From contig JBNJGV010000001.1 of assembly GCA_051819785.1 (NCBI GenBank), positions 1 to 51,953 on the forward strand: a stretch of DNA of 51,953 nucleotides, given 5' to 3'. The translations under genes were made by a program, and so were the position numbers. Origin of the DNA: Nanobdellota archaeon (GTDB lineage Archaea > Nanobdellota > Nanobdellia > Woesearchaeales > DSVV01). A model generated the notes under the pieces. It saw only the letters and a list, made by a program, of their open reading frames with translations. It had not been told where the DNA came from and made no database searches. This document shows, one piece after another, positions 21,108 through 40,391 of the stretch (positions are counted from its first letter, which is position 1; each line of letters begins with the position of its first letter).

Positions 21108-21108
21108 T

Positions 21109-22008
21109 TTAATAAAGGAGTTTTATTGTTTTTGCTTTGCATGAAAACACAAAGTTTTTCTTAGAGGGATTTGTGTTTAGTTTATCTTTCATATGCTTGG
21201 CGATTTTTATGTTTTTAATTTTTTGTTTAGTTGGTTCTTCCCTGTTGCCTAGTTTTATGCAGTTTACTCCTACTTTCCAATAATCATATATTGCTCCAAA
21301 AGGGTCTTGGTGGACAGGATACGAAAATATTCTTTTTGCTACGAGGCTGGATTTTTTCTTTTTCTCGGAGAAATGCTGTATTTTTTTAATGTTATCACAT
21401 GCATCAAGTGGGATTTCTCCTTTCCAGAGCTGTTTGTTATACGTGTAAAAACAAAACCCGTCAATATTTCTGCAATAATTTGTTCCAAAAAAAAACACTT
21501 CTGTTTTAATGTCAACCTTTTTTTTAATCTTTTTAATCTCGTCTGGGTAGAGATGTTGTGGAACAACAAATCTTTTTATTCCTCTATTTTTAAAGTAATT
21601 GGCTGCACTTGAGTTTAGGCAAGGCGTGACGCTGCTTAGCGTTAGGTCAGCTTTTAAGTTAATTTTTACTTTTTTAAGGGCTTCAATTAAAACAAGGTCA
21701 GAAATAATAAATCCATCAATTCCAATAGAATCAATTTTTTTAAGAACCTCTATGAATCTTTTTAAAGAAGAGAAAATACATCCAACTTCATTTATTACTA
21801 GGTTAATCTTTTTTTTGTATTTATGGGTTATCTTAATTGCCTTTCCCAATTCCTCTAAGTCTTTTAGGTTCATTGAAGAAGAATTTGGTCTGTGGTTTAT
21901 TGTTGGAAGTTGTTTGGTTTTCAAAAGTCCACAATAAACTTCATCAGCACCATTTTTAATAATGCTTTCTAACTCTTCTAAGTTTGAAAATGCGGCAACT
22001 ATTTGCAT
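21109..22008 (-). CDS. Peptidase U32-family protein (the family now known mainly as Fe-S RNA/quinone hydroxylases)
   Basis: The N-terminus VAAFSNLEELESIIKNGADEVYCGL ... LEELGKAIKITHKYKKKINLVINE follows the U32 consensus (APAG-x-LE-x-L-x-AI-x-GADAVY-x-G ... H-x-x-G-x-K-x-Y-x-x-x-N). Confidence 0.6.
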   Translation of the reverse strand: MQIVAAFSNLEELESIIKNGADEVYCGLLKTKQLPTINHRPNSSSMNLKDLEELGKAIKITHKYKKKINLVINEVGCIFSSLKRFIEVLKKIDSIGIDGFIISDLVLIEALKKVKINLKADLTLSSVTPCLNSSAANYFKNRGIKRFVVPQHLYPDEIKKIKKKVDIKTEVFFFGTNYCRNIDGFCFYTYNKQLWKGEIPLDACDNIKKIQHFSEKKKKSSLVAKRIFSYPVHQDPFGAIYDYWKVGVNCIKLGNREEPTKQKIKNIKIAKHMKDKLNTNPSKKNFVFSCKAKTIKLLY

Positions 22009-22114
22009 AATAGAGGTTATTTACTTGTATATTAAAATATTTTTATCTTTTTTTAAATCAATAAAACGAGGTTATAATCAGTTCTCAAATAATGTGTGAG
22101 GGTTTCTGGCGAAC

Positions 22115-22130
22115 AGAAAAATATATAAAT
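22115..22130 (+). promoter_or_regulatory. BRE/TATA-like promoter element for the His-Xaa-Ser-tailed protein gene
   Basis: AGAAAAATATATAAAT ends 21 nt before the ATG at 22152, which implies a leaderless or near-leaderless mRNA. The identical 16-mer occurs at 40343-40358. Confidence 0.45.
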
Positions 22131-22151
22131 CATCTTATCTATGAAAGGTTT

Positions 22152-22475
22152 ATGGATTTACCCAAGGTTAAAAAAAAAGTTAATGGTTTTCTCTTGAACG
22201 AAGATGGGAAAATATCTAAGCAGGCTGCAGTTACAGTAGGTGGTGCCTTGGGTGTTTTTGTTGGTTCTTCTCTTATAGATTTTAGTTTTGCAGATTCTAT
22301 CAAACATTCACCAAAGGCGGATTGTGATCCTGTAGTAAAAGGTAATAGTGATAGTTCTGGGCATTGTTGGGCGCATAATAATAATATAATTAATGATTTT
22401 AAGCAAGATGCAGTAAAAAGTCAACACCAGCACCATTATAATCATACCAGCCATAGCAGCCATGGCTCCTATTAA
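22152..22475 (+). CDS. Small TM/signal-anchored protein with a C-terminal His-rich His-Xaa-Ser repeat tail (HxsA-like candidate precursor)
   Basis: The 107-aa product from the ATG at 22152 is MDLPKVKKKVNGFLL...AAVTVGGALGVFVGSSLIDF...KSQHQHHYNHTSHSSHGSY. The last 10 residues contain HTS-HSS-HGS. It overlaps the next gene's start by 14 nt. The track start at 22092 lies upstream of the TATA element, so I disfavour it. Confidence 0.5.
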   Translation: MDLPKVKKKVNGFLLNEDGKISKQAAVTVGGALGVFVGSSLIDFSFADSIKHSPKADCDPVVKGNSDSSGHCWAHNNNIINDFKQDAVKSQHQHHYNHTSHSSHGSY

Positions 22476-24234
22476 AAAGGAAAAAGTTAAATACAAAAAC
22501 CAAGGCGTAGCTTTGATGACAAAAAGATTCTTAGATTTGGGCTTGAAAAACAATAATAAAAATTCTTTTTTTGGAAAAGGGAAAAGTCGTAAATTTGATA
22601 ATATTGTTGATGAAATCGAAGGATTTAATTCATGGGATTCTGTTGTAATCTTTGGTAGTGAACCAACTGCAAGAAACGATTTTTTTAAAATTATTTCAAA
22701 ACTTAAGATAAAGGGTATTAACAAAATTTCCCTCATTACAAACGCCCGAGCATTTAATTATTCGAGTTTTGTAGAAAGATTAAGAGGTATAAAAGAATTG
22801 AAGGTTTTTGTTGAGCTCATGGCCCCAACTTTTGAAATGCACGACAAGATTACTGGCACTCCTGGAAGCTTTACACAAACGATAAAAGGCATTGAGAAGT
22901 TGATTGAAAAGGAATTCGATCTTTCATTAATCTTTCCAGTAGTTAAAGATAATTCAGATTTGATTTCAGGGATGGGTGAACTTTCATCTGTTTATGATAT
23001 TAAAAATATAGTTGTTTTTAACCCTCCTGAAAAACTCTTGAATAGATTAATTGATGCTGGCAAGAGGCATCCTCTCTTATTTAGTGTAGTTGGTTTAAAG
23101 CCCGAATTAGTTCGCTCGCCTTTGGATTTTTGTTTAGATCTTACTGATTTGGAAGAACTAGACCTAGAAAATGAGCCTTTTTTAAGAGTTTTAAGAGCAC
23201 TTGAACGCTTTCATAATAATAGCTTGATATATGTTTCACCTGATGAGGTTTATTATATGTTTCATAAATTTTCAAAGGGATATGAATTTCTTGATTTTGC
23301 TCATGATTTTGGATTTCCTGTGCCTGTTTTGATGCACCTGTTTAGGGAGCTTGAAAAGGAAAGAATTGTGACAATTGATGGGAAAAGGATAAAGCTTGAA
23401 ATTGAGCCGTTGGTTATAGAAAATTCAAAAAGTTTTAGAGAACAAAGACTTGAAGAGATTCCTTCTATATGTCAATTGAGAGTTGATGAGGTTGCACTTT
23501 TGAAAAGAGCAGACTTTGTCACAGAAAGGTCCTTAGGGAGCAGCAGGATTGCAATTCTTGGAGACGATGATTTTTTTTCACTGATTCTGGCAAGCAAAAA
23601 GGTTTTTCAGGAGATTTTCGTCTTTGAGCTTGATGAACGGATATGTGAGAAAATCAAAAGTATTGCTGAAAAAGAAAATTATAATATAAGGGTTGTCAAG
23701 CAGGACTTGAGAAAAGAATTCAGTCCCGAACTTATTGGCAAATTTGATGTTTTTTATACTGATTGTCCTTATTCTGTTAATGGCTTTACTCTTTTCTTTT
23801 CCAGGGGGTTGCAGCTATTGAAAAAAGAAAGGAAAAAAAGAGGATTTATGTCTTTTTCACCGAATCTTCCCATTGAGAGTGTAGAGATGGGTGTTCAAAA
23901 AGTGATAAATGATTCCGGAGTTTTTATTGAAAAGAAGCATCTGGGCGCAATTAATGAAATGCCTGATTATATTAGGCAAAAATATGATGATTTTAGTGCC
24001 TTGAAGAAAAATCTTGATGATTATGAAAGCATCCCTCTAGATGATAGTTGGTTTCTCTCAAGTCTGGGAAGAGAAGAGCAGTTGTTTTCTTTTTTGACTA
24101 CAAGTATGACACGCCCCCTGATTAGGGGTAAATTCGACGGCGAAATATATTATGGTGAGAACCCTCTTGCTTATTATACCGATAAAGAAAGCATAAAGAA
24201 AAGCAAATCAGAGAATGACATGTTCAAGTATTAA
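22462..24234 (+). CDS. Fusion: Cys-less (degenerate) radical-SAM-like HxsC-type domain + winged-helix-like linker + BpsA/DUF43 aminopropyltransferase-like domain
   Basis: The N-terminal half aligns with the radical SAM protein at 31124..31957 (VVIFGSEPTA / VVLSGGEPTL, ITNARAFNYS / LSNARAFSNK, HDKITGTPGSFTQTIKGIEKLIEK / HDAMTRTKKSFKQAVTGLKKLISK). Where the partner has KCNNNCLCC this protein has LKNNNKNSFF, and there is no Cys in the first roughly 215 aa. The C-terminal half has ILGDDDFFSLILA and GKFDVFYTDCPYSVNGFTLFFSRG, which match the DUF43/BpsA motifs (GDDDLTS, DPPYT...G...F.SRG). Confidence 0.6.
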   Translation: MAPIKKEKVKYKNQGVALMTKRFLDLGLKNNNKNSFFGKGKSRKFDNIVDEIEGFNSWDSVVIFGSEPTARNDFFKIISKLKIKGINKISLITNARAFNYSSFVERLRGIKELKVFVELMAPTFEMHDKITGTPGSFTQTIKGIEKLIEKEFDLSLIFPVVKDNSDLISGMGELSSVYDIKNIVVFNPPEKLLNRLIDAGKRHPLLFSVVGLKPELVRSPLDFCLDLTDLEELDLENEPFLRVLRALERFHNNSLIYVSPDEVYYMFHKFSKGYEFLDFAHDFGFPVPVLMHLFRELEKERIVTIDGKRIKLEIEPLVIENSKSFREQRLEEIPSICQLRVDEVALLKRADFVTERSLGSSRIAILGDDDFFSLILASKKVFQEIFVFELDERICEKIKSIAEKENYNIRVVKQDLRKEFSPELIGKFDVFYTDCPYSVNGFTLFFSRGLQLLKKERKKRGFMSFSPNLPIESVEMGVQKVINDSGVFIEKKHLGAINEMPDYIRQKYDDFSALKKNLDDYESIPLDDSWFLSSLGREEQLFSFLTTSMTRPLIRGKFDGEIYYGENPLAYYTDKESIKKSKSENDMFKY

Positions 24235-25304
24235 GGTATTATTTCACACCCATTATATTTTGTGTATTCAAAATCATCTATGGAGACTACGCCTTTTTCT
24301 ATCATGTCTTGGATTTTTGGCTTTATTTCAATCAATTTATCTATAAGGTTTTTTACGGTTTCACATACCAGGTTAAAACCCTCCTCGCCCCATGGCTTTG
24401 TAAGGTTTGCGACAAGGCATCTCCCACCGCATAATCCATAATAGCTACATGAAGTACAAGGGGTTTTTACAAACAAGGAGTTTTCTAATTCAAAGGGTGT
24501 TTTTTGGAAGATTGTTCCTAGGATGAAATCTTTATCTCTTAGATTTGTGCAAGGGGCAATTGATCCATCGGTAAGTATATTAAAAAAGTTTCTTCCTGCG
24601 CCACATCGAAGCAAAGTATTTTGTTCTTTTATAATATTCTGCATGACTCCAATAAATGGATAAATTTTTTTCACATTCCCTCTTTCAATTTTTTCTAACC
24701 ATTCATCTACAAGCTTTCTTATTCCTGGGTTATATTTTTCATAAACCCATTTTTCTGGATTTTTCCATGTCTCTTTATCAAAAAAGCACATGTTAAGTTG
24801 CCAGTGAATAGAATCAAAAATTCCTACCCTTAATAGGTGATTAACTTGTTTATGTATGTCTGTTTTTTCATCAATTGTCATCCTTGCTATTAATTCACCT
24901 TCGAAGCCGTTTTGTTTTATCTGTTTTGCATTATTTATGACGGATTTGTAAGTTCCTATTCCTCTGTAATAATCCGTTAATATCTCGTCACCATCTATGG
25001 AAATGAGTATGGTATGCAACCTATTGATATAATTTCTTTTTATTTCTTTTAGAAGAATGCCATTTGTCTGTAGCATAAATTTTTTCGCATGTACACAATC
25101 CATTATTTTTTTGATTTGATTCTTGTTAATGAGGGGTTCTCCTCCATAAAAAGTAATATTGCACTCAGCGTCTTTTTCAAGGAATGATTTAAGATCTTCT
25201 AGATTATATGACGGGAAAAAAGGAAATCTTCTCCTTACTTTGTTATCTGCACAATATTTGCATTTCAGATTACAATTCATGGTTGTAAATATATTATAAT
25301 TCAT
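24231..25304 (-). CDS. Radical SAM enzyme with C-terminal SPASM-type Cys-rich domain (peptide-maturase-like)
   Basis: The CX3CX2C motif is at TMNCNLKCKYC, followed by FYGGEPL and QTNG. The C-terminal Cys cluster is CGAGRN...APC...CTSCSYYGLCGGRC. Confidence 0.85.
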   Translation of the reverse strand: MNYNIFTTMNCNLKCKYCADNKVRRRFPFFPSYNLEDLKSFLEKDAECNITFYGGEPLINKNQIKKIMDCVHAKKFMLQTNGILLKEIKRNYINRLHTILISIDGDEILTDYYRGIGTYKSVINNAKQIKQNGFEGELIARMTIDEKTDIHKQVNHLLRVGIFDSIHWQLNMCFFDKETWKNPEKWVYEKYNPGIRKLVDEWLEKIERGNVKKIYPFIGVMQNIIKEQNTLLRCGAGRNFFNILTDGSIAPCTNLRDKDFILGTIFQKTPFELENSLFVKTPCTSCSYYGLCGGRCLVANLTKPWGEEGFNLVCETVKNLIDKLIEIKPKIQDMIEKGVVSIDDFEYTKYNGCEIIP

Positions 25305-25347
25305 TCCAATAAGAAAAATTTAAATTATATTAAAATTAGGCGGTTTT

Positions 25348-26946
25348 ATGAAAAAATCATTCCTGAAAGTTTGTGATAAAAGCAATAATAAAAACACCTT
25401 TTTTGAAAATAACAGCATCTTATCTTTTAAAGATATATGTGAAAGCCATAATGTTGTAATATGCGGGGGAGAACCCACCTTGTTTTCGGGGTTTTTCAAT
25501 CTGATATCTAAATTATCTGGTTGCAGGAGCATTTCTGTGATAACAAATGCAAGGGCTTTTTCTTATTCTTGGTTTTCCAGAAAAATTGATGGCAATTCTT
25601 TTAATGCCTATGTTGAAATTCTTTCTTACGATGAATCTAGGCATGATTCACTTACGGGAACTCCTGGAAGCTTTAAGCAAACTATTGAAGGCGCCAGAAA
25701 TCTCTTAGATTCATCAATACAGCTCAACTTTGTAATGCCTTTTATTGGACAGGATAAAAACGAGATTATATTAACTAAAAAATTAGCTCATGACCTGGGA
25801 GCAAAAAGATTTGTGATTAAGAATTGCACCAATCGTAATTATCCTCCTTTTTTCTTCAAGGAGCTTTCAGACGATTTCCCTTTTGATATTGAAGCAATAG
25901 ATTTTGAAGATTTTAATTTGCCTTCCAAAATGAAATTATGTTTTGAAATTCAGGATCTTAACCTGATAACTGGCTCTACAAGAATAAAATTATTGAGGAT
26001 AATTAGGGATTTGATTTATCCAGTCCCTTTTTCTAATCCTGATGATCTTTATAATTGTTTTCATAATATAAATGAATCCATATTGGATTCAAGCGAAAAG
26101 ACTGGTCTGGGAATAGAGTCCATTTATGATATAAATTCTCTCGTTAAAAGGGAAGGGCTGGTTCAATTGCCTCAACCACCCTGTATAGGCAAATTGCCGG
26201 GCCCGGAATCTGATAATAATCCCAATCTTTGCCAATTGAGCCTTAATAAAGAACATTTAATGCATAGATTAAATTATCTTTTGAAAATAATGGTTCCAGG
26301 AAGCGATCTGGTTTTATTGGGTGATGAAGATAATATTTCAATTGAACTTGCCAAGACAGGGCACTTCAAATCAATTACTGTTTTTGAGTATGATTCTGAT
26401 ACAGTCAAAGAATTAAAAAAAAAAGGGAAAGATTACCCAATATTTGTTTATGAGCATGATTTGAGGAAAAAAATTCCTTGTAAATTTAATGGTGTTTTTG
26501 CTTATATGTATTGCGCACCCCCTCATAATCCTGAAGGGTTTAGGCTTTTTGTTTCAAGAGGCGTTAAGCTGCTAAGGGGTGTGTTTGCAAAAAAGGCCTT
26601 TGTTTCTTTTGACATGTCTTTTTTAGATAAGGCCCATGAAATAAAAATCAATAAGATTATAAACGAGATGGGCTTGTTATCAAAAAATATTGGTCTTGAA
26701 TGTGTGCCTGAATTTCCTAAATATTTGCATAGAAGGTACTCTGACCCTAAATATTTACGTGGTGCAATAACTGATCCCTTTCATATCAATAAGAATGATT
26801 TATGGCATTTATCAAAGACCGGAAGAGCTGAATCATGCTTTGAACTAATTGTTCCGACCGATTGCAAGCCGGCAGTTGAATCTGATATACATGAAAATGT
26901 ATGCTATGATGAAGATATTTTTGAAAAACTTAGTTATTTGGAATGA
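25348..26946 (+). CDS. Second fusion paralog: degenerate radical-SAM-like domain + BpsA/DUF43-like domain
   Basis: CGGEPTL, ITNARAFSYS and HDSLTGTPGSFKQTIEGARNLL are retained. The cluster-binding site reads VCDKSNNKNTFF, with no CX3CX2C. The C-terminal half has VLLGDEDNISIELA and FAYMYCAPPHNPEGFRLFVSRG (DUF43-like with an altered DPPYT). Confidence 0.6.
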   Translation: MKKSFLKVCDKSNNKNTFFENNSILSFKDICESHNVVICGGEPTLFSGFFNLISKLSGCRSISVITNARAFSYSWFSRKIDGNSFNAYVEILSYDESRHDSLTGTPGSFKQTIEGARNLLDSSIQLNFVMPFIGQDKNEIILTKKLAHDLGAKRFVIKNCTNRNYPPFFFKELSDDFPFDIEAIDFEDFNLPSKMKLCFEIQDLNLITGSTRIKLLRIIRDLIYPVPFSNPDDLYNCFHNINESILDSSEKTGLGIESIYDINSLVKREGLVQLPQPPCIGKLPGPESDNNPNLCQLSLNKEHLMHRLNYLLKIMVPGSDLVLLGDEDNISIELAKTGHFKSITVFEYDSDTVKELKKKGKDYPIFVYEHDLRKKIPCKFNGVFAYMYCAPPHNPEGFRLFVSRGVKLLRGVFAKKAFVSFDMSFLDKAHEIKINKIINEMGLLSKNIGLECVPEFPKYLHRRYSDPKYLRGAITDPFHINKNDLWHLSKTGRAESCFELIVPTDCKPAVESDIHENVCYDEDIFEKLSYLE

Positions 26947-26983
26947 TAGGAAGTTTTTTATTTACTAATCTATCACTTATTGT

Positions 26984-28009
26984 ATGAAAAATAGGTTTCT
27001 TGAAAAAGCAATGACCAAAAATGAAATACGTGTATTTAATCATGTTGTTTTCAACAATTTTCTTGATATCTCAGAATTGAGGGCTGAATTTAAGGAGTCT
27101 TTGGAAAATCTTGAAAAAAAAGGTATTTTGATAAAGAAAAATAATTTTTATTTTTTAGATAATCCTTCAAAGGTTTTTAAAAACCTAAATAAGATTCTTA
27201 AAAACAGTTCAATCGATAAGATAATAGATGAAAAGACAACCCACCAACATATTGAAGTGACAAAAATGGGCGATGAGTTTCTCTTAGAATTAAACAGTAA
27301 CCCGCAGGTTTGTTCTATTGATGAAGAAGAATATCACTTTTGTATTGGAACTGTTCCATGTTGCTTAGCAAAAAAATTAAATCGTGTTCTTATTCTTGGG
27401 GGTGGTGATCTTTTAGCTGCACGCAATGTCTTGCAATTTAATGAAGTTGATGAAGTTATTCTTGTTGAACTTGATAAAAGGATACTTGATATTTTTTGTA
27501 ATTTGAATTTTCTTGCTGATTGTAACAAGTTTGCTTTTTCTGATTCCAGATTGAAAATAATTAACGGGGATGCATTTAAATGGCTAAATGAGGACAGTGG
27601 GAATTTTGATGTAATTATTTATGACTGTGAAGAAACGTTTACTAATCAGGGTGAAGAATTCAACATGGTTTCATACCTTGGGTTTTATGAACTGATGTTT
27701 AATAAATTGTCAGAGGGTGGGATACTCACCTTTAATTGTTCCAATGATCCTGAAGAAGAAGAATATTTTGATTATATGTTTGAAAAAAATATCAAAAAAA
27801 ATCTCCCTACCCATATTAGTAATATTATTGAAAAGAAAAAAAAGATGCATCAAAAACAATGGCTGTTGCATAAATTTAATCACAAGAATGTTGTGCGCAT
27901 CGACCTGACTTCACCTGTTGTAGGGTTCCATTCAAATTGGTATTTTTCTAATGAAAAAATAACCCAAAGGCGTGGGAATCAATCCTTAGATAATTTTTTC
28001 ATAAGATAA
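26984..28009 (+). CDS. Spermidine-synthase-fold (aminopropyl/methyl-transferase class I) protein with an N-terminal wHTH-like domain
   Basis: RVLILGGGDLLAARNVLQFNEVDEVILVELDKRILD and NGDAFKWL...FDVIIYD follow the SpeE pattern (GGGDGG ... E-x-D ... GD-x-x-x-[FW]L ... [FY]DVII-x-D). Confidence 0.55.
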   Translation: MKNRFLEKAMTKNEIRVFNHVVFNNFLDISELRAEFKESLENLEKKGILIKKNNFYFLDNPSKVFKNLNKILKNSSIDKIIDEKTTHQHIEVTKMGDEFLLELNSNPQVCSIDEEEYHFCIGTVPCCLAKKLNRVLILGGGDLLAARNVLQFNEVDEVILVELDKRILDIFCNLNFLADCNKFAFSDSRLKIINGDAFKWLNEDSGNFDVIIYDCEETFTNQGEEFNMVSYLGFYELMFNKLSEGGILTFNCSNDPEEEEYFDYMFEKNIKKNLPTHISNIIEKKKKMHQKQWLLHKFNHKNVVRIDLTSPVVGFHSNWYFSNEKITQRRGNQSLDNFFIR

Positions 28010-29007
28010 AGGCAGTTTTCTTGCCCTGCATGCCTATCAAAGGTGCCCGTCTTTACTAATTTATCTGATACTGCAATTAACCTGCAACCTCCTTTGCATA
28101 TATTAAAATATTCACATGAAGCGCAGGGTTCTTTTATCTTGTCAAAATTAATCAAGTTGTTTTTTATATTGATGTTTTTACCATCGAAATTTCCTATGCT
28201 GAACTCATCTACTGCTGACATACAAGGACAAGGGAAAATTTTCATATCCTCCAGACGTATTGCAATATGATTTTTGCCTGCATTGCAATAATGGTTCTTA
28301 AGAGGAGGTGCGAAAAACCAGCATTTTCTTTTATTTTCAGGGTTGTCTGGACCCCAGATTGAATCCAACTCAATAGTAAATGAATATTTTCCATAGTTTT
28401 CTTTTATTTTTTTATATATCTCATATCTTTCTTTTCCGGTTAAAATAGAATCTTCTCCAAGATTTTTTTTGGCATTTCCTGAATAGCATAATGGGATGAG
28501 CTCAACAAAATTAATAGGTAGGTTTTTCTCAGCGAAATCAAGCATATCTTTAATGTGGTTTTTGTTTTTTTTGTTTACTACGAAGTTTACACCGATAGTT
28601 TGTATATGGTCTCTGTGGCTTTTTTTTATGTAATTGACAATCTTGTTGAAATCATTTTTGCCACTTGAATATTTATGCAGTTTTTGATTATGTCCATGAA
28701 GGCTTATGACAATATTTGTCTTAAGTGAGTTCATGTATCTCAAGTCTTTCTCATCCGGAGAAAATTCTGGATTGATGTTAAGCCATTCGGGGTTGCTTCT
28801 TTCAAATTGCTTTGTTTTTCTAAATATTTCTATGGATTCATGATTTATATTAAAATCAAACAGATGAACAAAGTATCCTTGTTTTTTTAGAATCTTGACT
28901 ATTTGGGAGATCTTTTTGTATCCAACCGGAGAAGACCCTCCATAACAGCAAATATTGCAGTTACGTTGGCAATTCTTGTGAACAAGAGTAATTGTTTTAA
29001 TTTCCAT
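27979..29007 (-). CDS. Radical SAM enzyme with SPASM-like C-terminal Cys cluster
   Basis: The CX3CX2C motif is at KNCQRNCNICC. The C-terminal Cys cluster is CNAGKNH...FPCPC...EPCASCEYFNICKGGCRL. Its 3' end overlaps the convergent gene by 31 nt. Confidence 0.8.
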   Translation of the reverse strand: MEIKTITLVHKNCQRNCNICCYGGSSPVGYKKISQIVKILKKQGYFVHLFDFNINHESIEIFRKTKQFERSNPEWLNINPEFSPDEKDLRYMNSLKTNIVISLHGHNQKLHKYSSGKNDFNKIVNYIKKSHRDHIQTIGVNFVVNKKNKNHIKDMLDFAEKNLPINFVELIPLCYSGNAKKNLGEDSILTGKERYEIYKKIKENYGKYSFTIELDSIWGPDNPENKRKCWFFAPPLKNHYCNAGKNHIAIRLEDMKIFPCPCMSAVDEFSIGNFDGKNINIKNNLINFDKIKEPCASCEYFNICKGGCRLIAVSDKLVKTGTFDRHAGQENCLYLMKKLSKD

Positions 29008-29052
29008 TTTTTTTCGAAAAGTATTAATATTATATTAAATTTTAGGAGGCGT

Positions 29053-30180
29053 ATGGAAAAAAAACTTTTTGATTTTCAGGCATTGCTTGATAATTTCTCT
29101 GTGCTTGATAAAAAGTGGGACATTTCTTTAAAGAGTGTAGATGACCTTTCAAAGGTTAAAGTTACAAAAAGAAATGATATACATAGGTTCTCAATTAATT
29201 CTTGCCCTGAAAAACCAGTTTATGTTATGAATACCTCGGGAACTCTTGGGACGCCCACGTTATTTTTCATTTCAAAGGGTGCCTATGAAACACATATAAA
29301 AAGGGTTGAAACCATGTTCAAAATATCCGGATACAATCCGCATGAAGTTGTAGTTAACATGACAGAAGACCCAATTGCAAATAGTGCTTTTGTTCGTGGC
29401 GGGCATACATTTATTCATACTGGAATGCTGATTGAACAAAACGCAGAAATAATTGCCCAGAAGATTTTACAGACGAGACCCACTTATATGTATACATATC
29501 TTTCATTGGCATATGATTTATTCAAGATGATAAATAAGAAAGGTGTTGTGAAAAATATCGTTGGTGTTGGTTCTCTTGTTACTAAAGACTTTAAAAATTC
29601 TATTAAGGAGCTTACTGGTGCAGATTTTAAGATGATGTATGGGACACAGGAGTTTGGTGCTCTTGGCATCCAGGAAAATGAAGATGACGAATATTATTCT
29701 CTGATTGATGATGGTCTTTATACTGAGGTCATGAATAAATCTGGTGAAATCTCCGAAAACGGTAGTGGGGCTCTTCTTATTACAGATTACAATAATTTTT
29801 CATCGCCTTTTATAAGATATTTTGTAGGTGATGAAGTTGAGCTGATGAGAAAAGATGGCAAAACTTATCTTAAAGTTTTAGGCAGATGTGATAATTTTAT
29901 AAAACTCCAAGGGGATGTCGATTCAAAGGAAGGCATAATTTCAATTATGCAAGGTATTCTAAAACATGATAATTTTTTGATAGAGGTTACAAATGATACT
30001 GGATTAAATGACTATATGACCATTTTAGTACCTTCAAAGGATTTAGAAAAAAGAAAACTTATTTCAGAAAAAATGATGGAGTTTTACCAAGTACCTTGTG
30101 TTGTTAAAGCTTTAAATTCTCCTGTACCAAAGACACAATCTGGTAAAAGAATTAATATCAATGATAAACGATTTAGCTAG
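29053..30180 (+). CDS. Adenylate-forming ligase, PaaK/CapK/F390-synthetase-like
   Basis: MNTSGTLGTPTLFF matches the AMP-binding motif (SSGTTGKPT). LKVLGRCDNFIKLQGDV matches the GR-x-DD-x-I-x-x-x-G block. I prefer the ATG at 29053, preceded by AGGAGG at 29044-29049. The track start at 28903 would overlap the divergent radical SAM gene. Confidence 0.6.
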   Translation: MEKKLFDFQALLDNFSVLDKKWDISLKSVDDLSKVKVTKRNDIHRFSINSCPEKPVYVMNTSGTLGTPTLFFISKGAYETHIKRVETMFKISGYNPHEVVVNMTEDPIANSAFVRGGHTFIHTGMLIEQNAEIIAQKILQTRPTYMYTYLSLAYDLFKMINKKGVVKNIVGVGSLVTKDFKNSIKELTGADFKMMYGTQEFGALGIQENEDDEYYSLIDDGLYTEVMNKSGEISENGSGALLITDYNNFSSPFIRYFVGDEVELMRKDGKTYLKVLGRCDNFIKLQGDVDSKEGIISIMQGILKHDNFLIEVTNDTGLNDYMTILVPSKDLEKRKLISEKMMEFYQVPCVVKALNSPVPKTQSGKRININDKRFS

Positions 30181-30193
30181 TTTTTTCTATATT

Positions 30194-31084
30194 TCAAATT
30201 GTTTCATTACATTTTTCTTTGATTATATTTTTATATCTTAAATAATCTTGTTTTGTTATTGTTTCGCATATTTCAGAATCAGGGGAGGGTAATGACCCAC
30301 ACATACTGGCATTACCTGTTTTGAAAGCATTAAAAAAAACAGAAATCTCTATACATGTGTTATAATTATTAAAATCATCATTGCTTTTGAAGTAATCACA
30401 ATATGTTGTGTTTTTTTCTGATATTGCTTTGCAATATGTTTTAGGAACTGCTTCCATGGAATCGCAGCTTGTTTTTTTTTTAAATAATAATTTACAAAGG
30501 CTCTTTTGTTCTTCTTTTCCAATTTTATTACACAATTTCTCGTCTTTATCTTTAAGCGCTTTTGAAGAGAAATAGACTGCTTTACAATAATCTTTTTCTT
30601 CTTTATTATCAATTTTATTGCAAAAATCAGGGTTGTTTTCAAATAGGGCAATAATAATAGGATCTTTATTCTCTTCATAACACTTCTGGATTTCCTCTTC
30701 AACAAACCTTTTGTTCCTTTCTCTGGTAAGTTCGTCCATTTCTTCATTTGTTAATTTTGTTTCTTTCTCTTCATTTATTTCTTCTTTCTCTTCAGGTGTA
30801 TCTTCTGTTGTGTCTGTGTTATTAGGTTCTTCTGAGTTAATTAGTAATAAAAACATTCCGACAATTAAAAGAACAATCATAATGACTGCAAAAATATATA
30901 CTTTGCCTGTATTATGTATTTTGTATTTTTCTTGCTGAAGGGGTTGATTTTTCTCGGCCTCTTTAAAGGCAAAATTAATTTTTTCTTTGTTATATCCTGC
31001 CTCAACTAGAATTTTTGTAATTTTTTCATCAGAGAAGCCCCTTTGCTTTTCTCTTAAGATATAGTTGGCTAATTGTTCGACCAT
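30194..31084 (-). CDS. Single-pass membrane protein with acidic linker and Cys-rich extracytoplasmic domain (hypothetical)
   Basis: The N-terminal soluble segment is ANYILREKQRGFSDEKITKILVEAGYNKEKI, and the TM helix is VYIFAVIMIVLLIVGMFLLLI. About 16 Cys follow in recurring C-[NK]-K-[IA] / K-x-x-C spacing. Confidence 0.5.
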   Translation of the reverse strand: MVEQLANYILREKQRGFSDEKITKILVEAGYNKEKINFAFKEAEKNQPLQQEKYKIHNTGKVYIFAVIMIVLLIVGMFLLLINSEEPNNTDTTEDTPEEKEEINEEKETKLTNEEMDELTRERNKRFVEEEIQKCYEENKDPIIIALFENNPDFCNKIDNKEEKDYCKAVYFSSKALKDKDEKLCNKIGKEEQKSLCKLLFKKKTSCDSMEAVPKTYCKAISEKNTTYCDYFKSNDDFNNYNTCIEISVFFNAFKTGNASMCGSLPSPDSEICETITKQDYLRYKNIIKEKCNETI

Positions 31085-31123
31085 CTTTTTATAATTGACC
31101 CCTTTCTTTATATTTTTTGTTAT

Positions 31124-31957
31124 TTACTTTACGGTGGTTGTAAAAGGTACGGGTTTTTCTCCTGAATGCTCAATGTAACCTTTCCAGAAACCGCAGCATT
31201 TTGATTTTTTTTCACACCTCCTGCATTCATTTGGGAAATATATGTCTTCTTCAGGCGCAGTTTTTCCTTTGGTATGCTTATGAAGTTCTTTTGGAAGAAA
31301 ACAAAGCGGCAGGTGTAAAATTATAGGCTTTATATTAGTTTTTTTTATAACCTTTGTTGCATTTTTTATTGGTTCTATTGTTTTTTTATAGCTAATAAAC
31401 AAATTGTTAATGTTACTTAATGCTTCACCATCAATTTTCATTTGTATAAATACAATCCTTTTAGCACCCTGAAACTCTTTTTTTATAAATTGAGAAATCT
31501 TTTCAAGTTTACTATAGTTAAGTTTTGTTATTATTATTCGTACTTCTGCGTTATATCCTTTAGATATTAGTTTTTTTAATCCAGTAACGGCTTGTTTGAA
31601 GCTTTTTTTGGTTCTAGTCATAGCATCATGTTCTGGCTCATTATCTGAATAAAGAGCTGTTGCTATTATGAATCTTTCTTTATTAATATTACAAGATTCA
31701 AATTTTTCAAAGAAATTTTTGTTTGAGAAAGCCCTTGCATTGCTGAGTATTAACCCAGATGAACCTGAATTATTAACGTCTTTTATTGCTTTGAAGAAAT
31801 TTTTAGAAAGCGTAGGTTCTCCACCCGAAAGAACAACCATCTTTTCTTTATCTTTTATTTTTGGGTAACTATCTCTTACTTCTTTTTCTCTTAACTTTTT
31901 CTCGGCAACACAGCATAGGCAGTTGTTATTGCATTTTGTTGTAAGTGTAATATGCAT
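31124..31957 (-). CDS. Radical SAM enzyme, HxsC-like (second maturase of a His-Xaa-Ser-type pair)
   Basis: The CX3CX2C motif is at TTKCNNNCLCC, with GGEPTL and NARAF blocks. The C-terminal Cys cluster is CRRCEKKSKCCGFW. It lies immediately downstream of the HxsB-like gene. Confidence 0.5.
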   Translation of the reverse strand: MHITLTTKCNNNCLCCVAEKKLREKEVRDSYPKIKDKEKMVVLSGGEPTLSKNFFKAIKDVNNSGSSGLILSNARAFSNKNFFEKFESCNINKERFIIATALYSDNEPEHDAMTRTKKSFKQAVTGLKKLISKGYNAEVRIIITKLNYSKLEKISQFIKKEFQGAKRIVFIQMKIDGEALSNINNLFISYKKTIEPIKNATKVIKKTNIKPIILHLPLCFLPKELHKHTKGKTAPEEDIYFPNECRRCEKKSKCCGFWKGYIEHSGEKPVPFTTTVK

Positions 31958-31988
31958 CTACATCACTTTGTGCTATGTTCTGTAAAGA

Positions 31989-33392
31989 TTAATCATAAAA
32001 TTTTATCCATTTTTCAAACACTTCTTTAGCAGACTCATCAAAAAGATATTTTTCAAAAATATAATCAAATTGTGCTTTAAATATCTGGCAATATGTTGTT
32101 TGTGGAACGTTTGCAACAATGCTGCCCTGTTCTGCGTAGTTAACTACTGGACAAAGCCCACAATATGGTTTATAGGGGCAATACTCACATATATCTGTGT
32201 CGTTAATTGATGAGGATATCAAAGAAGTACTTTCTTCGCAAGAAATAACTTCTTTAAATTTTTGATTCTTGACTGACCCAATTTTAAAAATCTCTTCTTC
32301 GAACATTCTCCCTTCATCACAGCAAAAAATGTCTCCTTTATGATTATATGCCATCTGACCGATGACTGCGCCACAGGGGCTTCGCATATCAAGAAACCCT
32401 GGGTCAACTTTCTGTAAAATCTTTTGAAGAATAATTGTTGTTCCTCTTTCTCTGAAAAAGATACCTTCTTTATTCTTTTTTATTATGTAATCAAGGCTTT
32501 TTTTCCAAAACTTAATAAACTCCTCAGGTGAATATTCTATCTTATCCTTGTTTTTATTTGCGTAACCCAACTTGTTAAAATATCTTAAATGAATTCCTTT
32601 TAATCCAAGGCCAAGATATTCATCTATGATTTCTTTAGGATATTTAATTGATTCTTTTGTAATTGTAACAAGAGCGTTCATTTGTGCATTTAGTTCTTTT
32701 TTTTTGTATTCTTGCTGGATTTTTTTAATCCAGCCCGTTACCAACTCATGGCTGGATTTTTTATATGGTCTGTTAAAGTCATGGAGTTTTTTTGGCCCAT
32801 CTAAGGAGGTACATATATCAATCTGATTTTTTATGCAGTATTCAAGTATTTCATCAGTCATTTTTGTAAGATTGGTAACCATAACAAAACGAAGATTCTT
32901 GTTATATTTTTTATTCACATTCTTGGCATAGTTTGTAATTTTTTTTATTATTTCGAAATTTAATAAAGGCTCTCCCCCCTGGAATTCTATTGTTACTTGT
33001 TTAGAAGGGCTCTGGAAAATATAATCAACTGTTTGTTCAGCTGTTTTCTCGTCCATATCGTAGCCTTTAGCATCTTTTTGAGTAGAAGAAGTCTGACAAT
33101 ATAGGCATTTTTGATTGCATCTTAATGTTATCGCTACAATGTGAAGAGAAGTGCCCTGCCTGAGAAAATTATATCTTGTATTATAATCGTTTTTTATTTC
33201 TTCTTTGTTGTTTTTTGTTAGAATTATCCCCTTTGATTCGAGTTTTTTGAAAAGGTTTTCTTCTTTAATGTTATCATACTGGAGATGTTCAAACTCTTCT
33301 TTGTTCAAAGCAATCCAATTGCCATGACTTGTTGTTACAAGATATTTGTCATTTATCTTTTTGAATCTGAAAGGATTTATAAGGTATTTCAT
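31989..33392 (-). CDS. Radical SAM/SPASM enzyme, HxsB-like
   Basis: 467 aa. The N-terminal PFRFKKINDKYLVTTSHGNWIALNKEEFEHL resembles the HxsB leader-binding-type N-terminus. The CX3CX2C motif is at LRCNQKCLYC, with FQGGEPLL. The SPASM-like tail is CGA...CCDEGR...CEYCPYKPYCGLCPV. Confidence 0.6.
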   Translation of the reverse strand: MKYLINPFRFKKINDKYLVTTSHGNWIALNKEEFEHLQYDNIKEENLFKKLESKGIILTKNNKEEIKNDYNTRYNFLRQGTSLHIVAITLRCNQKCLYCQTSSTQKDAKGYDMDEKTAEQTVDYIFQSPSKQVTIEFQGGEPLLNFEIIKKITNYAKNVNKKYNKNLRFVMVTNLTKMTDEILEYCIKNQIDICTSLDGPKKLHDFNRPYKKSSHELVTGWIKKIQQEYKKKELNAQMNALVTITKESIKYPKEIIDEYLGLGLKGIHLRYFNKLGYANKNKDKIEYSPEEFIKFWKKSLDYIIKKNKEGIFFRERGTTIILQKILQKVDPGFLDMRSPCGAVIGQMAYNHKGDIFCCDEGRMFEEEIFKIGSVKNQKFKEVISCEESTSLISSSINDTDICEYCPYKPYCGLCPVVNYAEQGSIVANVPQTTYCQIFKAQFDYIFEKYLFDESAKEVFEKWIKFYD

Positions 33393-33598
33393 TTTAGTAT
33401 TTTGGTCATTCCAAGCGTATAATTTTTGAACTCTTTAATTGTTTCTTCGGGGTTTTCTCTTTTGGTTTTCAGTTTAACTTTATGGGTTTCTTTATCTTCT
33501 TTTAAGTCCCCTTCGACAAAATCTTTAAAATCATTAATGGCTGCAAGGATTGCGTTTTTAGAGTATAATTCCTTTTCGAACCTAACTGTTTTCTCCAT
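33389..33598 (-). CDS. HxsD-like small protein, short paralog (69 aa)
   Basis: VRFEKELYSKNAILAAINDF...IKEFKNYTLGM aligns with the neighbouring 139-aa protein (FLDKELYPKDVLHTTAYVF...SKEFKNQLINYAHHM). Its stop overlaps the HxsB-like start (ATGA). Confidence 0.4.
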   Translation of the reverse strand: MEKTVRFEKELYSKNAILAAINDFKDFVEGDLKEDKETHKVKLKTKRENPEETIKEFKNYTLGMTKILK

Positions 33599-34001
33599 TT
33601 TTGTTATATTTTTCCTCCCACGGGACGAGAATTCCTTCAGGGTCTTCTATATCATCTTCCTGCTCAAAGTCGAATTCAAAACTCTCCTCTTCGTTATCGA
33701 TAAAATTGTATGCGAAAATCTCTTGGAGAAGCTTTTTCTTAACTTCTTTGTTTTTTTCATTCATTTGCATATGGTGGGCATAATTTATTAGTTGGTTTTT
33801 GAATTCTTTTGAAAGTTGTTTTGCGTCTTTGTTGTTTTTTGGCTCGAGTTCAACGATAATTTCGTTATCTTTACCCTTTTTCAAAAAGATATAGGCCTTT
33901 TCAAGGAAAACATATGCTGTTGTGTGAAGCACATCTTTTGGGTAGAGCTCTTTGTCAAGAAAGATTTCAACCTTTTCTTTCTCTGAGTTGGTCTTTTCCA
34001 T
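33582..34001 (-). CDS. HxsD-like small protein with acidic C-terminal tail (139 aa)
   Basis: EFKNQLINYAHHMQMNEKNKEVKKKLLQEIF resembles the LLNDYxLRE-type motif region that defines HxsD. I prefer the ATG at 34001 (MEKTNSEKEK) over the TTG at 34022. Confidence 0.4.
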   Translation of the reverse strand: MEKTNSEKEKVEIFLDKELYPKDVLHTTAYVFLEKAYIFLKKGKDNEIIVELEPKNNKDAKQLSKEFKNQLINYAHHMQMNEKNKEVKKKLLQEIFAYNFIDNEEESFEFDFEQEDDIEDPEGILVPWEEKYNKNGENS

Positions 34002-34071
34002 ACTTGCTTTGACTGGGGGCAAGATATTTAAATGTTACTAATCTTTCTAAAATGCAAATCCAGTAAAAAGC

Positions 34072-34117: not shown

Positions 34118-37100
34118 ATGGTAAAAGGAAAGTATGTCTTGTTATTTTTAGTATTGGTTTTTTTAGTAGTTTTTGCGACTTCTGTTTTTGCAGGAGGTCT
34201 TGATACTGGATACGCAGATGATGAGACTGTAGCAATTGGTGGCGGTGAAGGTGGTGAAGATGATGAAGAAACAGGCATGAAAGGCAAAACTACAAATCTT
34301 TATATGAAAATTGGTCTGGCTTGTGTTCAAAACGAAAGGGATGCTACAGGCGGAACACCTACTACTGATTCTTCTTCTTTTACTTGGTTTGATGGTTGTG
34401 ATAATGTTGATGATGATAAGCCTGAAGGAAAGATAGGTTATTCTTTTGCCCAAAGATGGGTATATAATTCTGATGGAAGGATGAATTTTAACCCGTATGA
34501 ATGGAGCGAATATAAAAAAGCTGGTTATGAGCCATTTATAGAACTTGATTTGAATTGGAGTGACCCCCGCGAAATTAGATATGAAGGGGATTGTAAGGTG
34601 TATGTTTATTCAGCAAATACCAAGTACCCTGGCCAGTCCGAAGATAGCGATAAAAAATCCAAAGGGGGAAAATTTACCTATTACATTGGGAAAAACCAGG
34701 ATCCTGGGCCCGGGGAAAAGAAAAAGGTTTATGATTTTGATAGAAATATTAATTGGGATGCTAATAAGGCGGATTGTGAGCTTATAGGCGGGGAGTGGCT
34801 TGATGATGAAGTTGACAACCCTGAAACTTATGAGCACGGAACAAGGGGCTCTTATAGGTGCTGTGGAGACGATTGGATTTGGCTTTATAATAGGCCTATA
34901 AATTATGACTCGTCCATTGATAGAACAAACCCAAAAATTATAGAAAAAGTTGACAACCAAGAGCTTTGCCTCTATAATTTGAATAATTATGGAACACCAG
35001 TAGATGTTGAAGGGTTAAGTACAGAAAATCCTAATTATAGATGTCATAAGGCCTATGGCGGAGATGGGAATTCTCATGTTGCTTATGATCCTACTCTTGA
35101 GTTGGATGAGTTAACAAGAGAAGACCCAAATAGGGACGGCGTAATGGCTCGATCAGACGATAATTTTTTCTTTGCAGGTCCTTTAAGCTCGAGCTATGAA
35201 ACAGATATTGGCAAATGGTCTAATAATGACGCAAGCCAAGCAATGTTTTGTTATCATCAATTCAATACTTCTTCAGAAAATGGAGAGGATTTTTCATGGA
35301 TTTCTATTGAAAAAGCAGCCCAAAAAAATCAGCTTATATGTGAGGCATATTTAGGCTATAACTGGACTGGCAGTAATTGTTGTTTTGATGATATGACTTA
35401 TAATGATTCAGAAACCAGTTGTAATTCTAAGGAAATAATTTATGGTCTAAGTCCTGAGTTTTCTAGTCCGGAGTTTGAAGAGGACTTTTTTGAGGAATGC
35501 GATCTTGCAAGCTTCAGGAATCCTGCATGTTTAGAAGGAAGTTCTGTTGAAAACAATACTGCAGTAATCAGTAACGAGAGTAAAAGGGAAGTTTATAATC
35601 TAAATGGTGAATTATTCTTTTGTAACCGCACTCAAGGCAACCAGATTTATGAGGACTTTGAGCATGTCCCAAAATGCGCTCTTAAGGGTCCTGAAGAATA
35701 TCCTTTTATCTGCGCTTATCATAATGATTCTTGGTATGATACTTACAACGCGAATCAGCTTCTAGGGTGGCAGGACAATGGTTCCACGGGAGAACAGATT
35801 GAAAATGGCCTTGGTGTAAGCAGTCTTCCTGAATTTGAAAGTTTTCCTGATAATCTCGATCCTGATGTACAGCAAAAGGAATGTTGTTATTTTGGTTCAT
35901 GTTGGAACGGCACAAAATGCGTTAGCGCTCAAACTAACAATGGCTTTTACCAGGTAGTTGATAACCAGTGGGGCCCTATGATGGGCGGTGTTACTGAGGA
36001 CAAAAAAAACTTTATGTGTTTTAAAGGAGAGTGGCTGGAGCGTTCTCCTGAGTTTAATTGGTATTATGATACAAGCCCCCAAAGGGTTTCTTTATGCCCC
36101 GACACACATTCTTGCGCTTGCAGTGGTGGAGAAACAGCAGGGTATGATTATAGTTGTGGCGAGGAGAATGTAAACGAATTTGGATGCACGATTGAGGAAA
36201 ATTTTTACAAAGAAGACCATTTTTGTGAGGCGACATATGATGATTCAGATGAAGTTAAGGATTCAAGATGGACCTCAAGGACAAAGCTTATTGCCCTGCA
36301 GCTTAAAAGGCTTGCCCAGGGAAGCGACAACTATACTTTGTTTTGTGATGATATTGATTATGCTGTAAATTCACCCGGAAAATTAAAAACAGAGGCAATG
36401 CCTTATGATATTAATAAGGTGTGTGTTATTGAGTTTGATGGTAAAACGGCAATGGGGCTTTCTTTTAATGCAGATAAAGATTCTGAAAATCCTGTTGATA
36501 GTTTCCTTTTTGGTAATGGTGATGTTAATAATGGCTTTGCAAGAGTTGTAGAAAACAATCTCGAAGTGAACGGATGTGATTTTGGTGAGCCAAGCGATTC
36601 ATCAAGTGGAACTTACAAAAAATGTATTGGGGGAAACAACAAAATTTGGGCAAATAGTAAGACAAATTCAATCATATATTCAAAAGAAGGATTAAATATT
36701 GGCGATGGACAATTACCAAAACCTAGCCAAAACGGATTTGATAATTTGGTTCAAGAAATTGTGGATGTTGTTCAAAATAATGATGATTCTGATTTGCCTG
36801 AAGCAGCCTATCTTATCACTACAGCCTCTAATTTTAATAGGCTTTATATGTTAAAAAAAGGAGAAAAGGAGGCATTTGGCTTTATAGAAACGAGAAGGGA
36901 TCCTGCAATAAGTGCAGATGATGACACACCTCTTAGGAATTTTGTTGCAGTTAAATACAGTGGATTTACTAATGTCTGCAATGATATTAGCTTTGTAAGG
37001 GAAAGAGACGATATTCTTCTTTATTGTAATGAACAAGGAGGGGAGAATTTTGTGCTTGGCAGAAGCAGAGATGCTCATCCAGATTATTGGAAAAACCTGG

Positions 37101-37123: not shown

Positions 37124-37146
37124 TCAAGCTCTTTTTACTGATTAAA

Positions 37147-40329: not shown

Positions 40330-40342
40330 CTCTAATTACATT

Positions 40343-40358
40343 AGAAAAATATATAAAT
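40343..40358 (+). promoter_or_regulatory. BRE/TATA-like promoter element upstream of the 2070-aa surface protein gene
   Basis: AGAAAAATATATAAAT lies 34-49 nt upstream of the ATG at 40392 and is identical to 22115-22130. Confidence 0.4.
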
Positions 40359-40391
40359 TAATTATGGTGGTATTATGGTTGTTAGGATAAA

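Follow-up and report, generated by a model that had tools for sequence, protein, structure and literature searches.

A candidate His-Xaa-Ser peptide maturation island with a putative aminopropylation module in a DPANN archaeon

In a 51,953-nucleotide stretch of a Nanobdellota archaeon genome (contig JBNJGV010000001.1 of GenBank assembly GCA_051819785.1, hereafter the window), we analysed a gene island at positions 22092–34022. We interpret it as a DPANN-archaeal His-Xaa-Ser (HXS) maturation system of the HxsA3 type to which an aminopropylation module has been added, and we give this interpretation an even chance of being right. Homology and synteny define a core made up of the precursor, HxsB, HxsC, HxsD, a second HxsD-like protein, a Cys-rich membrane protein and an A24-type membrane peptidase. 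The add-on comprises two proteins that join a cluster-less HxsC domain to a BpsA-type aminopropyltransferase, a SpeE-fold enzyme, two more radical S-adenosylmethionine (SAM)/SPASM enzymes and a ligase, and probably also a U32-family protein with its partner. With the peptidase and the U32 pair included, the island probably extends over 19391–34022. While HXS maturation is itself a known kind of process, the archaeal aminopropyl variant, with its plausible chemistry, appears to be new.

An initial annotation of this DNA had proposed a 12-gene island, and all 12 open reading frames were found at the coordinates it gave (Table 1). The likely starts are 22516 for the first fusion, in agreement with the NCBI product P0001 and the orthologs, and 29053 for the ligase. 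The four proteins to which CX3CX2C motifs had been ascribed carry CNLKCKYC (24231–25304), CQRNCNIC (27979–29007), CNNNCLCC (31124–31957) and CNQKCLYC (31989–33392), and the three SPASM-like tails correspond to the TIGR04084 match of the first (357.5 bits), the TIGR04085 match of the second (42.6 bits) and the full-length HxsB match of the fourth. The two paralogs described as Cys-less radical SAM domains joined to DUF43, given there as the 22462 and 25348 open reading frames, both carry BpsA_C, the former DUF43, above the Pfam threshold of 27 bits (95.5 and 52.3 bits), together with N-terminal Radical_SAM-like regions devoid of CX3CX2C. Also recovered were the SpeE-fold protein (92.2 bits on PF01564, cut-off 22.9), the two HxsD-like small proteins (53.6 bits on TIGR03976, cut-off 50, and 67.3 bits on NF038315, cut-off 41), a PaaK/CapK-like ligase whose ANL core motifs are legible though its family matches are weak, and the membrane protein with a Cys-rich ectodomain, a transmembrane protein that has a Cys-rich tail and no family match. 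E-values of the profile matches ranged between 1e-14 and 1e-147, and the genes recur together in independent genomes, so chance is excluded.

The Hxs assignments on which the proposed island depended held for HxsB (490.4 bits), HxsD and the HxsD-like protein, all above their cut-offs, and only in part for HxsC, for which TIGR03977 was the best match yet stayed below its cut-off (178.8 versus 267.9 bits). This match covers profile positions 29–290 of 292, and the next family reached 77 bits. The genes follow the order HxsD, HxsD-like, HxsB, HxsC. Orthologs of HxsB with 38–58% identity occur in the related loci L005, L008, L042 and L061, the island HxsC shares 42% identity with the HxsC portion of an L061 protein of 728 aa, and the HxsD-like gene stands in tandem with HxsD also in L005, L008 and L061; for the L061 ortholog of HxsD, the Pfam family HxsD (PF27806) is recorded. 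The Cys-rich membrane protein (30194–31084) gave no match in family-model scans. BLAST found its homologs in L002, L005, L008, L058 and L061, and a protein of similar type was spotted by eye in L042. We considered it as an equivalent of HxsA and rejected this, as it has no His-rich repeats.

The precursor is composed of a basic leader (MDLPKVKKKVNGFLLNEDGKISKQ), a hydrophobic segment, a Cys pair and the tail KSQHQHHYNHTSHSSHGSY (22425–22472), in which three tandem H-x-S units (HTS-HSS-HGS) are followed by a final Tyr. The His-rich tail that the initial annotation had singled out is identical in the ortholog P0018, differs by one residue in P0019 and is a trait of the whole family. A profile built from four precursors matched 240 representative clusters at E ≤ 1e-3, so that the family numbers at least 240 clusters; its named members include metagenome-assembled genomes (MAGs) of Nanobdellota, Altiarchaeota and Anstonellales. 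The leader motif (E/D)xGK(I)SK was present in 133 of the 149 best members. Among 140 short members, His made up 14% of the last 30 residues and 2.6% elsewhere, at least one HxS lay within the last 30 residues in 99, and the C-terminal residue was Tyr or Trp in 76. The conserved leader junction GKISK(Q/E) fits poorly with the usual class III (prepilin-type) [KR]-[GA] cleavage motif. In the window, L001 and L004, no gene separates the precursor gene from the fusion gene downstream of it, and in L005 genes for a radical SAM enzyme and a SAM decarboxylase intervene.

Three further observations concern this family. In five members (P0032, P0034, P0044, P0078 and P0086), and at 10001–10819 of L061, a Hint (intein/Hedgehog-type) domain starting with CCFPAGT directly follows the His-Xaa-Ser tail, which suggests that self-cleavage would leave the tail with an activated C-terminus. 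The precursor gene of the closest relative (L001, 9644–9720) has an in-frame TAA at the position of Glu17 of the window protein (MDFPKLKKKVNGFLLN*EGKISKQ...), on a contig with 4.9x coverage; a sequencing error, a pseudogene and stop-codon recoding are possible readings. A minimal two-gene version at 240–2563 of L003 encodes a 74-aa HxsA3-like precursor with the tail GNHTHHASY and a 697-aa protein in which two radical SAM domains are combined with a SPASM domain, followed by housekeeping genes.

The proposed aminopropylation chemistry centres on the two fusion proteins. Their N-terminal domains have HxsC and HxsC4 as best NCBIfam matches and align by BLASTP with the island's own HxsC (E 5e-12 for 22516–24234 and E 1e-13 for 25348–26946). 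Both keep the GxEPT and NARAF motifs, and the three cluster cysteines are replaced (KNNNKNSFF in the first and KSNNKNTFF in the second), which makes them pseudo-radical-SAM domains; judged by these similarities, they derive from HxsC. The middle and C-terminal parts align to both domains of Thermococcus BpsA (winged helix and Rossmann fold), and BpsA crystal structures were the top matches by sequence and by fold (E 2e-14 for the structure model of fusion 1). We left the N-terminal domain of this AlphaFold model out of our conclusions, and the fold search did no more than confirm BpsA. On the side of decarboxylated SAM (dcSAM), fusion 1 carries LGDDDF and TDCPY, the latter with the equivalent of Asp225, and both GDDD and this Asp are kept in five of six fusions. 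In BpsA, GDDD and Asp225 are essential to position the aminopropyl group of dcSAM and to activate the acceptor (PMC12979288). The fusion is rare, with only two close relatives among 5.8 billion proteins searched; a scan of GTDB genomes with a single fusion protein as query gave no match, and the productive profile scan of GTDB genomes used a five-sequence fusion alignment.

We then compared the gene neighbourhoods (Table 1). At least five further loci of Nanobdellota (Woesearchaeota/Nanoarchaeota) contain the fusion together with Hxs genes, and Hxs genes accompany it in six of the eight loci longer than 10 kb; the co-localization expected from the initial annotation was thus observed in L001, L005 (= L040), L008, L041 and L042. 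A SAM decarboxylase gene lies beside or near the fusion in L004, L005 (98.9 bits on TIGR03330, cut-off 75.65), L008, L041 and L042, which provides independent support for chemistry based on dcSAM and aminopropyl transfer. About 45 other DUF43 loci, many with a SAM decarboxylase, contain no Hxs genes, indicating that the Hxs link is specific to the HxsC-fused clade. In a close relative (MCM 75% and TBP 91% identical), the island has a positional ortholog, L061, which keeps the A24-like, HxsC, precursor (Hint-fused), Cys-rich membrane protein, HxsB, HxsD-like and HxsD genes between the same flanking genes; at 10822–15372, two proteins of 786 and 728 aa join an intact HxsC-type radical SAM domain to B12-binding radical SAM domains. 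Since this core stands without an aminopropyltransferase, the aminopropyl module is optional, one interchangeable tailoring set. Gene content across the loci thus portrays the system as a fixed core with interchangeable tailoring modules, in which HxsC-type domains repeatedly appear as fusion partners of tailoring enzymes. In L062, two precursors are paired with a U32 protein and its partner.

Table 1. Predicted features of the island in the window and gene content of related loci (cut-offs in brackets)
Feature or locus	Position	Strand	Evidence or gene content
Polytopic membrane protein, A24 (prepilin/preflagellin-type) aspartyl peptidase family	19391–20386	+	Pfam matches of homologs and catalytic motifs
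Cys-containing partner of U32 protein, UbiV-like position, 242 aa	20379–21107	−	No family match
U32-family protein (UbiU/TrhP-like)	21109–22008	−	Peptidase_U32 78 bits (22.4)
HxsA3-like precursor, 107 aa	22152–22475 (ATG 22152)	+	NCBIfam HxsA3 best match on leader
Fusion 1: cluster-less HxsC-like domain, winged helix and BpsA-type aminopropyltransferase	22516–24234	+	BpsA_C 95.5 bits; catalytic motifs intact
Radical SAM/SPASM enzyme, TIGR04084 (AF0577) family	24231–25304	−	357.5 bits (225)
Fusion 2: cluster-less HxsC-like domain and BpsA	25348–26946	+	BpsA_C 52.3 bits; catalytic motifs degenerate
SpeE-fold aminopropyltransferase-like protein	26984–28009	+	PF01564 92.2 bits (22.9)
Divergent radical SAM/SPASM enzyme	27979–29007	−	CX3CX2C; SPASM TIGR04085 42.6 bits (27)
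PaaK/FlxY-like adenylate-forming ligase	29053–30180	+	FlxY 46.8 bits, PaaK 31.6 bits (weak matches)
Single-pass membrane protein, repeated Cys-x(n)-Cys C-terminal domain	30194–31084	−	Slot after HxsC
HxsC-type radical SAM enzyme	31124–31957	−	TIGR03977 178.8 bits; CX3CX2C intact
HxsB radical SAM/SPASM maturase	31989–33392	−	TIGR03978 490.4 bits (370), end-to-end match
HxsD-like small protein	33389–33598	−	NF038315 67.3 bits (41)
HxsD	33582–34022	−	TIGR03976 53.6 bits (50)
L001, closest relative			Window synteny as far as contig end
L004, short contig			Radical SAM gene fragment, SAM decarboxylase, precursor, start of fusion
L005 (= L040), Candidatus Woesearchaeota ARS74			HxsC-like, A24-like, HxsD, HxsD-like, HxsB, HxsA3-like precursor (tail GSHSHSPAHSQHVSHCSY), radical SAM, SAM decarboxylase, fusion, AF0577-type radical SAM, Cys-rich membrane protein
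L008, metagenome			HxsB, HxsD-like, HxsD, radical SAM, third HxsD-like, SAM decarboxylase, fusion
L041, Nanoarchaeota MAG			B12-radical SAM and fusion; SAM decarboxylase and HxsD about 9 kb off
L042, groundwater Woesearchaeota			Fusion, overlapping PaaK-like ligase, Cys-rich membrane protein, precursor, SAM decarboxylase, A24-like, HxsB, HxsD

Among the other enzymes of the add-on, the AF0577-type radical SAM/SPASM protein has orthologs that adjoin the fusion in L001, L005 and L058 and a SpeE-like gene in L056 and L057. The best family match of the divergent radical SAM/SPASM protein (27979–29007) was DynA at 57 bits, far under the cut-off, and no clear ortholog was detected in the other loci compared. 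The SpeE-like protein has an extra N-terminal region of about 75 aa with a winged-helix look and fell below every NCBIfam equivalog cut-off (126.7/472, 110.8/260 and 85.1/249.55 bits). It keeps the GGGD(L), ELD and GDA motifs and has DCEE(T) in place of DSSDP/DCTDP, with the first Asp kept and the second replaced by Glu. In both L056 and L057, an ortholog with 53% identity to it adjoins an AF0577-type gene, and L058 has a 33% relative together with a fusion. At 1495–7535, this last locus encodes a 572-aa fusion homolog, an AF0577-type radical SAM enzyme, FabH-, FabA- and ketoreductase-like proteins, a nitroreductase and a short SpeE-like protein, which hints at a lipid- or acyl-linked variant. 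The ligase shows the ANL motifs TSGTLGTPT, YGTQE, VGD, GRCDNFIKLQG and PKTQSGK, and the gene of its homolog in L042 (28% identity, E 6e-46) overlaps the stop codon of the fusion gene.

The A24-like membrane protein is probably the leader or processing peptidase of the system. Asp23 and Gly85-Asp86-Ala-Lys88 are invariant in four homologs; one family member matches Peptidase_A24 (E 2e-8) and three of four match Arc_PepC, on which the window copy reached E 0.07, and a profile search of the PDB gave chance matches only. Homologs lie within the Hxs clusters of L005 and L042 and adjoin the core in L001 and L061. The U32 protein had UbiU as best NCBIfam match, at a sub-cut-off 67 bits, and is again found together with HxsA3-like precursors in L001 and L062. 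Its partner is 54% identical to the syntenic L001 gene product and has a 27% homolog in L062 beside a U32 gene and two HxsA3-like precursors. The U32 protein is a possible oxygen-independent hydroxylase-type accessory enzyme, and the partner, too, is a possible accessory enzyme. The cysteines of the U32 protein are spaced C-x6-C-x17-C, in the manner of the iron-sulfur site in UbiU-type oxygen-independent hydroxylases, and the partner has C-x18-C-x3-C; as a pair, they resemble UbiU/UbiV.

Taken together, we propose the following scheme. In the cytoplasm, HxsD-type chaperones would hand the precursor tail to HxsC-type modules, and, as in bacteria, the tail would undergo radical modification by HxsB and HxsC. 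The cluster-less HxsC domain of 22516–24234 would dock the tail, or the radical-modified tail, for the fused BpsA domain, perhaps by way of the second HxsD-like protein, and the BpsA domain would move an aminopropyl group from dcSAM onto a tail nucleophile (the His imidazole, Lys or a newly made group). The SpeE-fold enzyme may lengthen the transferred group, and the ligase may acylate the new amine or activate the carboxylate of the conserved C-terminal Tyr. The leader would be cut off at the membrane by the A24-type peptidase, and the cationic product would act on or outside the cell. By analogy with bacteria, it could hinder the entry of viral DNA, and metal binding or host interaction are equally open as its role. 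A peptide is the likely acceptor of the fusion, in place of the spermidine used by BpsA. That the His/Ser-rich tail is aminopropylated, once or repeatedly, by a fusion of dead maturase and polyamine synthase fed by a cluster-encoded SAM decarboxylase is our tentative proposal, to which we give somewhat less than an even chance.

Several observations weigh against an HxsA3-type system with an aminopropylation module. HxsC and the precursor are both below the curated NCBI cut-offs; on its leader, the precursor reached 26 bits on the HxsA3 model (NF038309) against a cut-off of 65, and the precursors of the island and the related loci together ranged from 22 to 41 bits. The 52-kb window does not encode a SAM decarboxylase, and L061 has no BpsA, SpeE or U32 genes. 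The SpeE-like gene, the radical SAM gene at 27979–29007 and fusion 2 were not found in the more distant loci, and a search of the other loci for an ortholog of fusion 2 gave none. Fusion 2 has GDED instead of GDDD and CAPPH with Ala at the Asp225 position, and may by these substitutions be inactive or altered. In the fusion, neither the BpsA acceptor residues Glu259, Tyr290 and Tyr316 nor the C-terminal acidic carrier cluster can be aligned: the profile alignment to 5XNC ends at about chain residue 265–274, and the last 30 residues hold no obvious acidic cluster. This unalignable acceptor half would fit a different acceptor and proves nothing. The AlphaFold model of fusion 1, made from four sequences, is of moderate confidence (predicted local distance difference test score, pLDDT, 61.6). 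The earlier proposal that the two enzyme sets are coupled is supported as an interpretation, and none of the three outcomes that the initial annotation had named as refuting it was observed. It needs correcting in that the SpeE-like gene lies outside the conserved core, one of the fusions is degenerate, and the SAM decarboxylase of the relatives is not in the window.

The main rival is that a free polyamine is made and later ligated to the C-terminus. In its general form, the aminopropyltransferases produce a free polyamine that is used as such or subsequently joined to the precursor, and the peptide is never a direct substrate of BpsA; joining would proceed through the C-terminal carboxylate of the precursor and the PaaK-like ligase, or through a Hint-domain thioester in other lineages. 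Polyamines are canonically made by a SAM decarboxylase together with BpsA or SpeE (PMC12979288), and many ordinary DUF43 genes are fused or adjacent to a SAM decarboxylase without Hxs genes. The overlap of the ligase gene with the end of the fusion gene in L042 also speaks for it, as do the Hint domain directly after the tail in five precursor-family members, which suggests C-terminal activation, and the conserved Tyr or Trp at the end of most tails. However, it leaves unexplained why BpsA is fused to an HxsC-derived domain at every Hxs-linked locus, the polyamine-binding residues of BpsA are not recognizable in the fusion, and the ligase was present in just two of the loci seen. We consider this explanation unlikely.

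A second explanation is that separate systems lie side by side, the Hxs core acting on the precursor and the BpsA fusions, AF0577-type enzyme, SpeE-like protein and ligase on another substrate, such as the Cys-rich membrane protein or a molecule that is not a peptide. Most loci contain the Cys-rich membrane protein, and in L002 its gene stands directly beside a fusion gene; L058 contains the fusion, AF0577-type and SpeE-like genes with fatty-acid-type enzymes and no Hxs gene on the 10.6 kb available, and L061 has an Hxs core without any aminopropyltransferase. Such a juxtaposition is nevertheless hard to reconcile with the HxsC-derived N-terminal domain of the fusion itself, with the precursor gene immediately upstream of it in the window, L001 and L004, and with the presence of Hxs genes beside it in six of the eight loci above 10 kb, and we regard it as quite improbable. 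It is very doubtful that SAM itself is the substrate of the DUF43 and SpeE-fold domains, which would then be methyltransferases or 3-amino-3-carboxypropyl transferases and not aminopropyltransferases: the fold is that of class I SAM-dependent Rossmann enzymes, methyltransferases appear in the lower ranks of the fold search, the Pyrococcus homolog 2qm3 was deposited as a 'predicted methyltransferase' and the window lacks a SAM decarboxylase, but the acidic GDDD of the fusion and GGGD of the SpeE-like protein, which pair with the amine of dcSAM, are kept, and SAM decarboxylase genes lie near the fusion in five related loci. We also rejected a chance presence of housekeeping polyamine genes, which would be hard to square with the fusion to HxsC and with the recurrence at several loci.

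In bacteria, HXS is an anti-phage system that blocks the entry of phage DNA (PMC13128918, Nat Commun 2026). In the Escherichia coli system, HxsA carries a +8 Da modification within the HxS repeat, by which the statement in the initial annotation that Hxs chemistry is unknown has become outdated; HxsC binds HxsD, the N-terminus of HxsA is processed and the protein exported, and mature HxsA acts in the periplasm (PMC13128918). In that survey, 99.7% of HXS systems were in Pseudomonadota, nearly all with four genes, and the paper mentions neither archaea nor polyamines. The island shares with the bacterial system (TIGR03976–03979) the HxsB, HxsC and HxsD homologs in the same D-B-C order, a precursor with an N-terminal export or hydrophobic signal and C-terminal His-Xaa-Ser repeats, and maturation enzymes predicted to be cytoplasmic with an extracytoplasmic product. 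It differs in its archaeal host (Nanobdellota), in a 107-aa HxsA3-like precursor without a peptidoglycan-binding domain, and in gene arrangement: where the bacterial four-gene order is D-B-C-A, here HxsC is followed by the Cys-rich membrane protein, and the precursor is encoded on the opposite strand at a distance of about 9 kb. The second HxsD-like protein, the A24-type peptidase, the Cys-rich membrane protein and at least seven extra enzymes, including the aminopropyltransferase fusions, further set it apart. Variant Hxs families of this kind are already catalogued as protein families, as the NCBIfam models HxsA3 (NF038309), HxsC4 (NF038332) and HxsD-like (NF038315) are the best or passing models for the precursor leader, the HxsC-like proteins of L005 and L061, and 33389–33598, respectively, whereas the HxsC-like proteins here fall far under the cut-off of these variant models.

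With BpsA, the fusion has in common the winged-helix and Rossmann architecture, GDDD with the Asp225 equivalent, and, in the related loci, an adjoining SAM decarboxylase gene. It departs from BpsA in the HxsC-derived domain and in an acceptor half and C-terminal acidic carrier cluster that are not recognizable; moreover, BpsA is free-standing and found in thermophiles, while the fusion sits in a peptide-maturation cluster of low-G+C DPANN archaea from ordinary metagenomes, such as groundwater. We found no model or paper covering the cluster-less HxsC::BpsA fusion or its SAM decarboxylase link, and literature searches (aminopropyl with ribosomally synthesized and post-translationally modified peptides, radical SAM and archaea; DUF43) returned no description of a system combining Hxs and aminopropyltransferases. 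Microcin C (MccD/MccE) is likewise a ribosomal peptide product that gains a SAM-derived aminopropyl group, but there MccD moves 3-amino-3-carboxypropyl from SAM and MccE decarboxylates it, the enzymes are unrelated and the acceptor is a phosphoramidate. Diphthamide and hypusine also place SAM- or polyamine-derived alkylamine chains on one specific His or Lys; they differ in that Dph2 is radical SAM-like with a cluster and deoxyhypusine synthase uses spermidine, and both have single housekeeping targets without precursor-peptide logic.

HXS systems have been reported almost exclusively from Proteobacteria, and the island and its relatives reveal a large archaeal branch with a precursor family of at least 240 clusters. 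The combination of a fixed core with interchangeable tailoring enzymes is a pattern typical of fast-evolving defence or surface systems. The fusion offers a clear example of a catalytically dead radical SAM domain reused as an adaptor and, with a SAM decarboxylase alongside it in the relatives, predicts peptide aminopropylation as testable chemistry. DPANN genomes are very small, and 12–15 genes devoted to one peptide suggest a function important for host-associated life or against viruses. If true, aminopropylation of the tail would constitute a new class of post-translational modification, a peptide-anchored polyamine, and a new route by which primary-metabolism enzymes are recruited into peptide maturation; DPANN archaea would then have at their surface a polycationic effector, which might be the archaeal equivalent of the barrier that bacterial HXS raises against incoming viral DNA.

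In the remainder of the window, Rfam and tRNA scans for non-coding RNA gave nothing, and PADLOC (2023), whose set has no Hxs models, reported only generic radical-SAM similarity to prokaryotic viperins, which says nothing either way about a role in defence. The flanks of the island encode Cdc6, both PolD subunits, MCM, TBP and RNase P p30. Directly after the island, at 34118–46604, three very large secreted Cys-rich proteins (1001, 1080 and 2070 aa) gave no family matches; in L061, homologs of these proteins flank the Hxs core with their order preserved, and L042 has a weak homolog adjoining the fusion. They may be linked to the island by synteny only or be functionally related surface proteins. 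At the other end of the window, positions 1–1826, and especially 1751–1822, form a stretch of 21.7% G+C directly upstream of cdc6/orc1 (1827–3038), which is followed by both PolD subunit genes, and this stretch contains the inverted repeat TTCCACAGGAAACAAAGG / CCTTTGTTTCATCTGGAA resembling archaeal origin-recognition boxes; it is probably a replication origin. In L008, genes for the small PolD subunit, Cdc6 and TrmB lie a few kb from the Hxs cluster. Between the TrmB-like regulator and the MCM region of the window, positions 9622–12852 encode a 458-aa protein with a weak sulfotransferase-domain match and a 602-aa protein with a C-terminal NUDIX domain.

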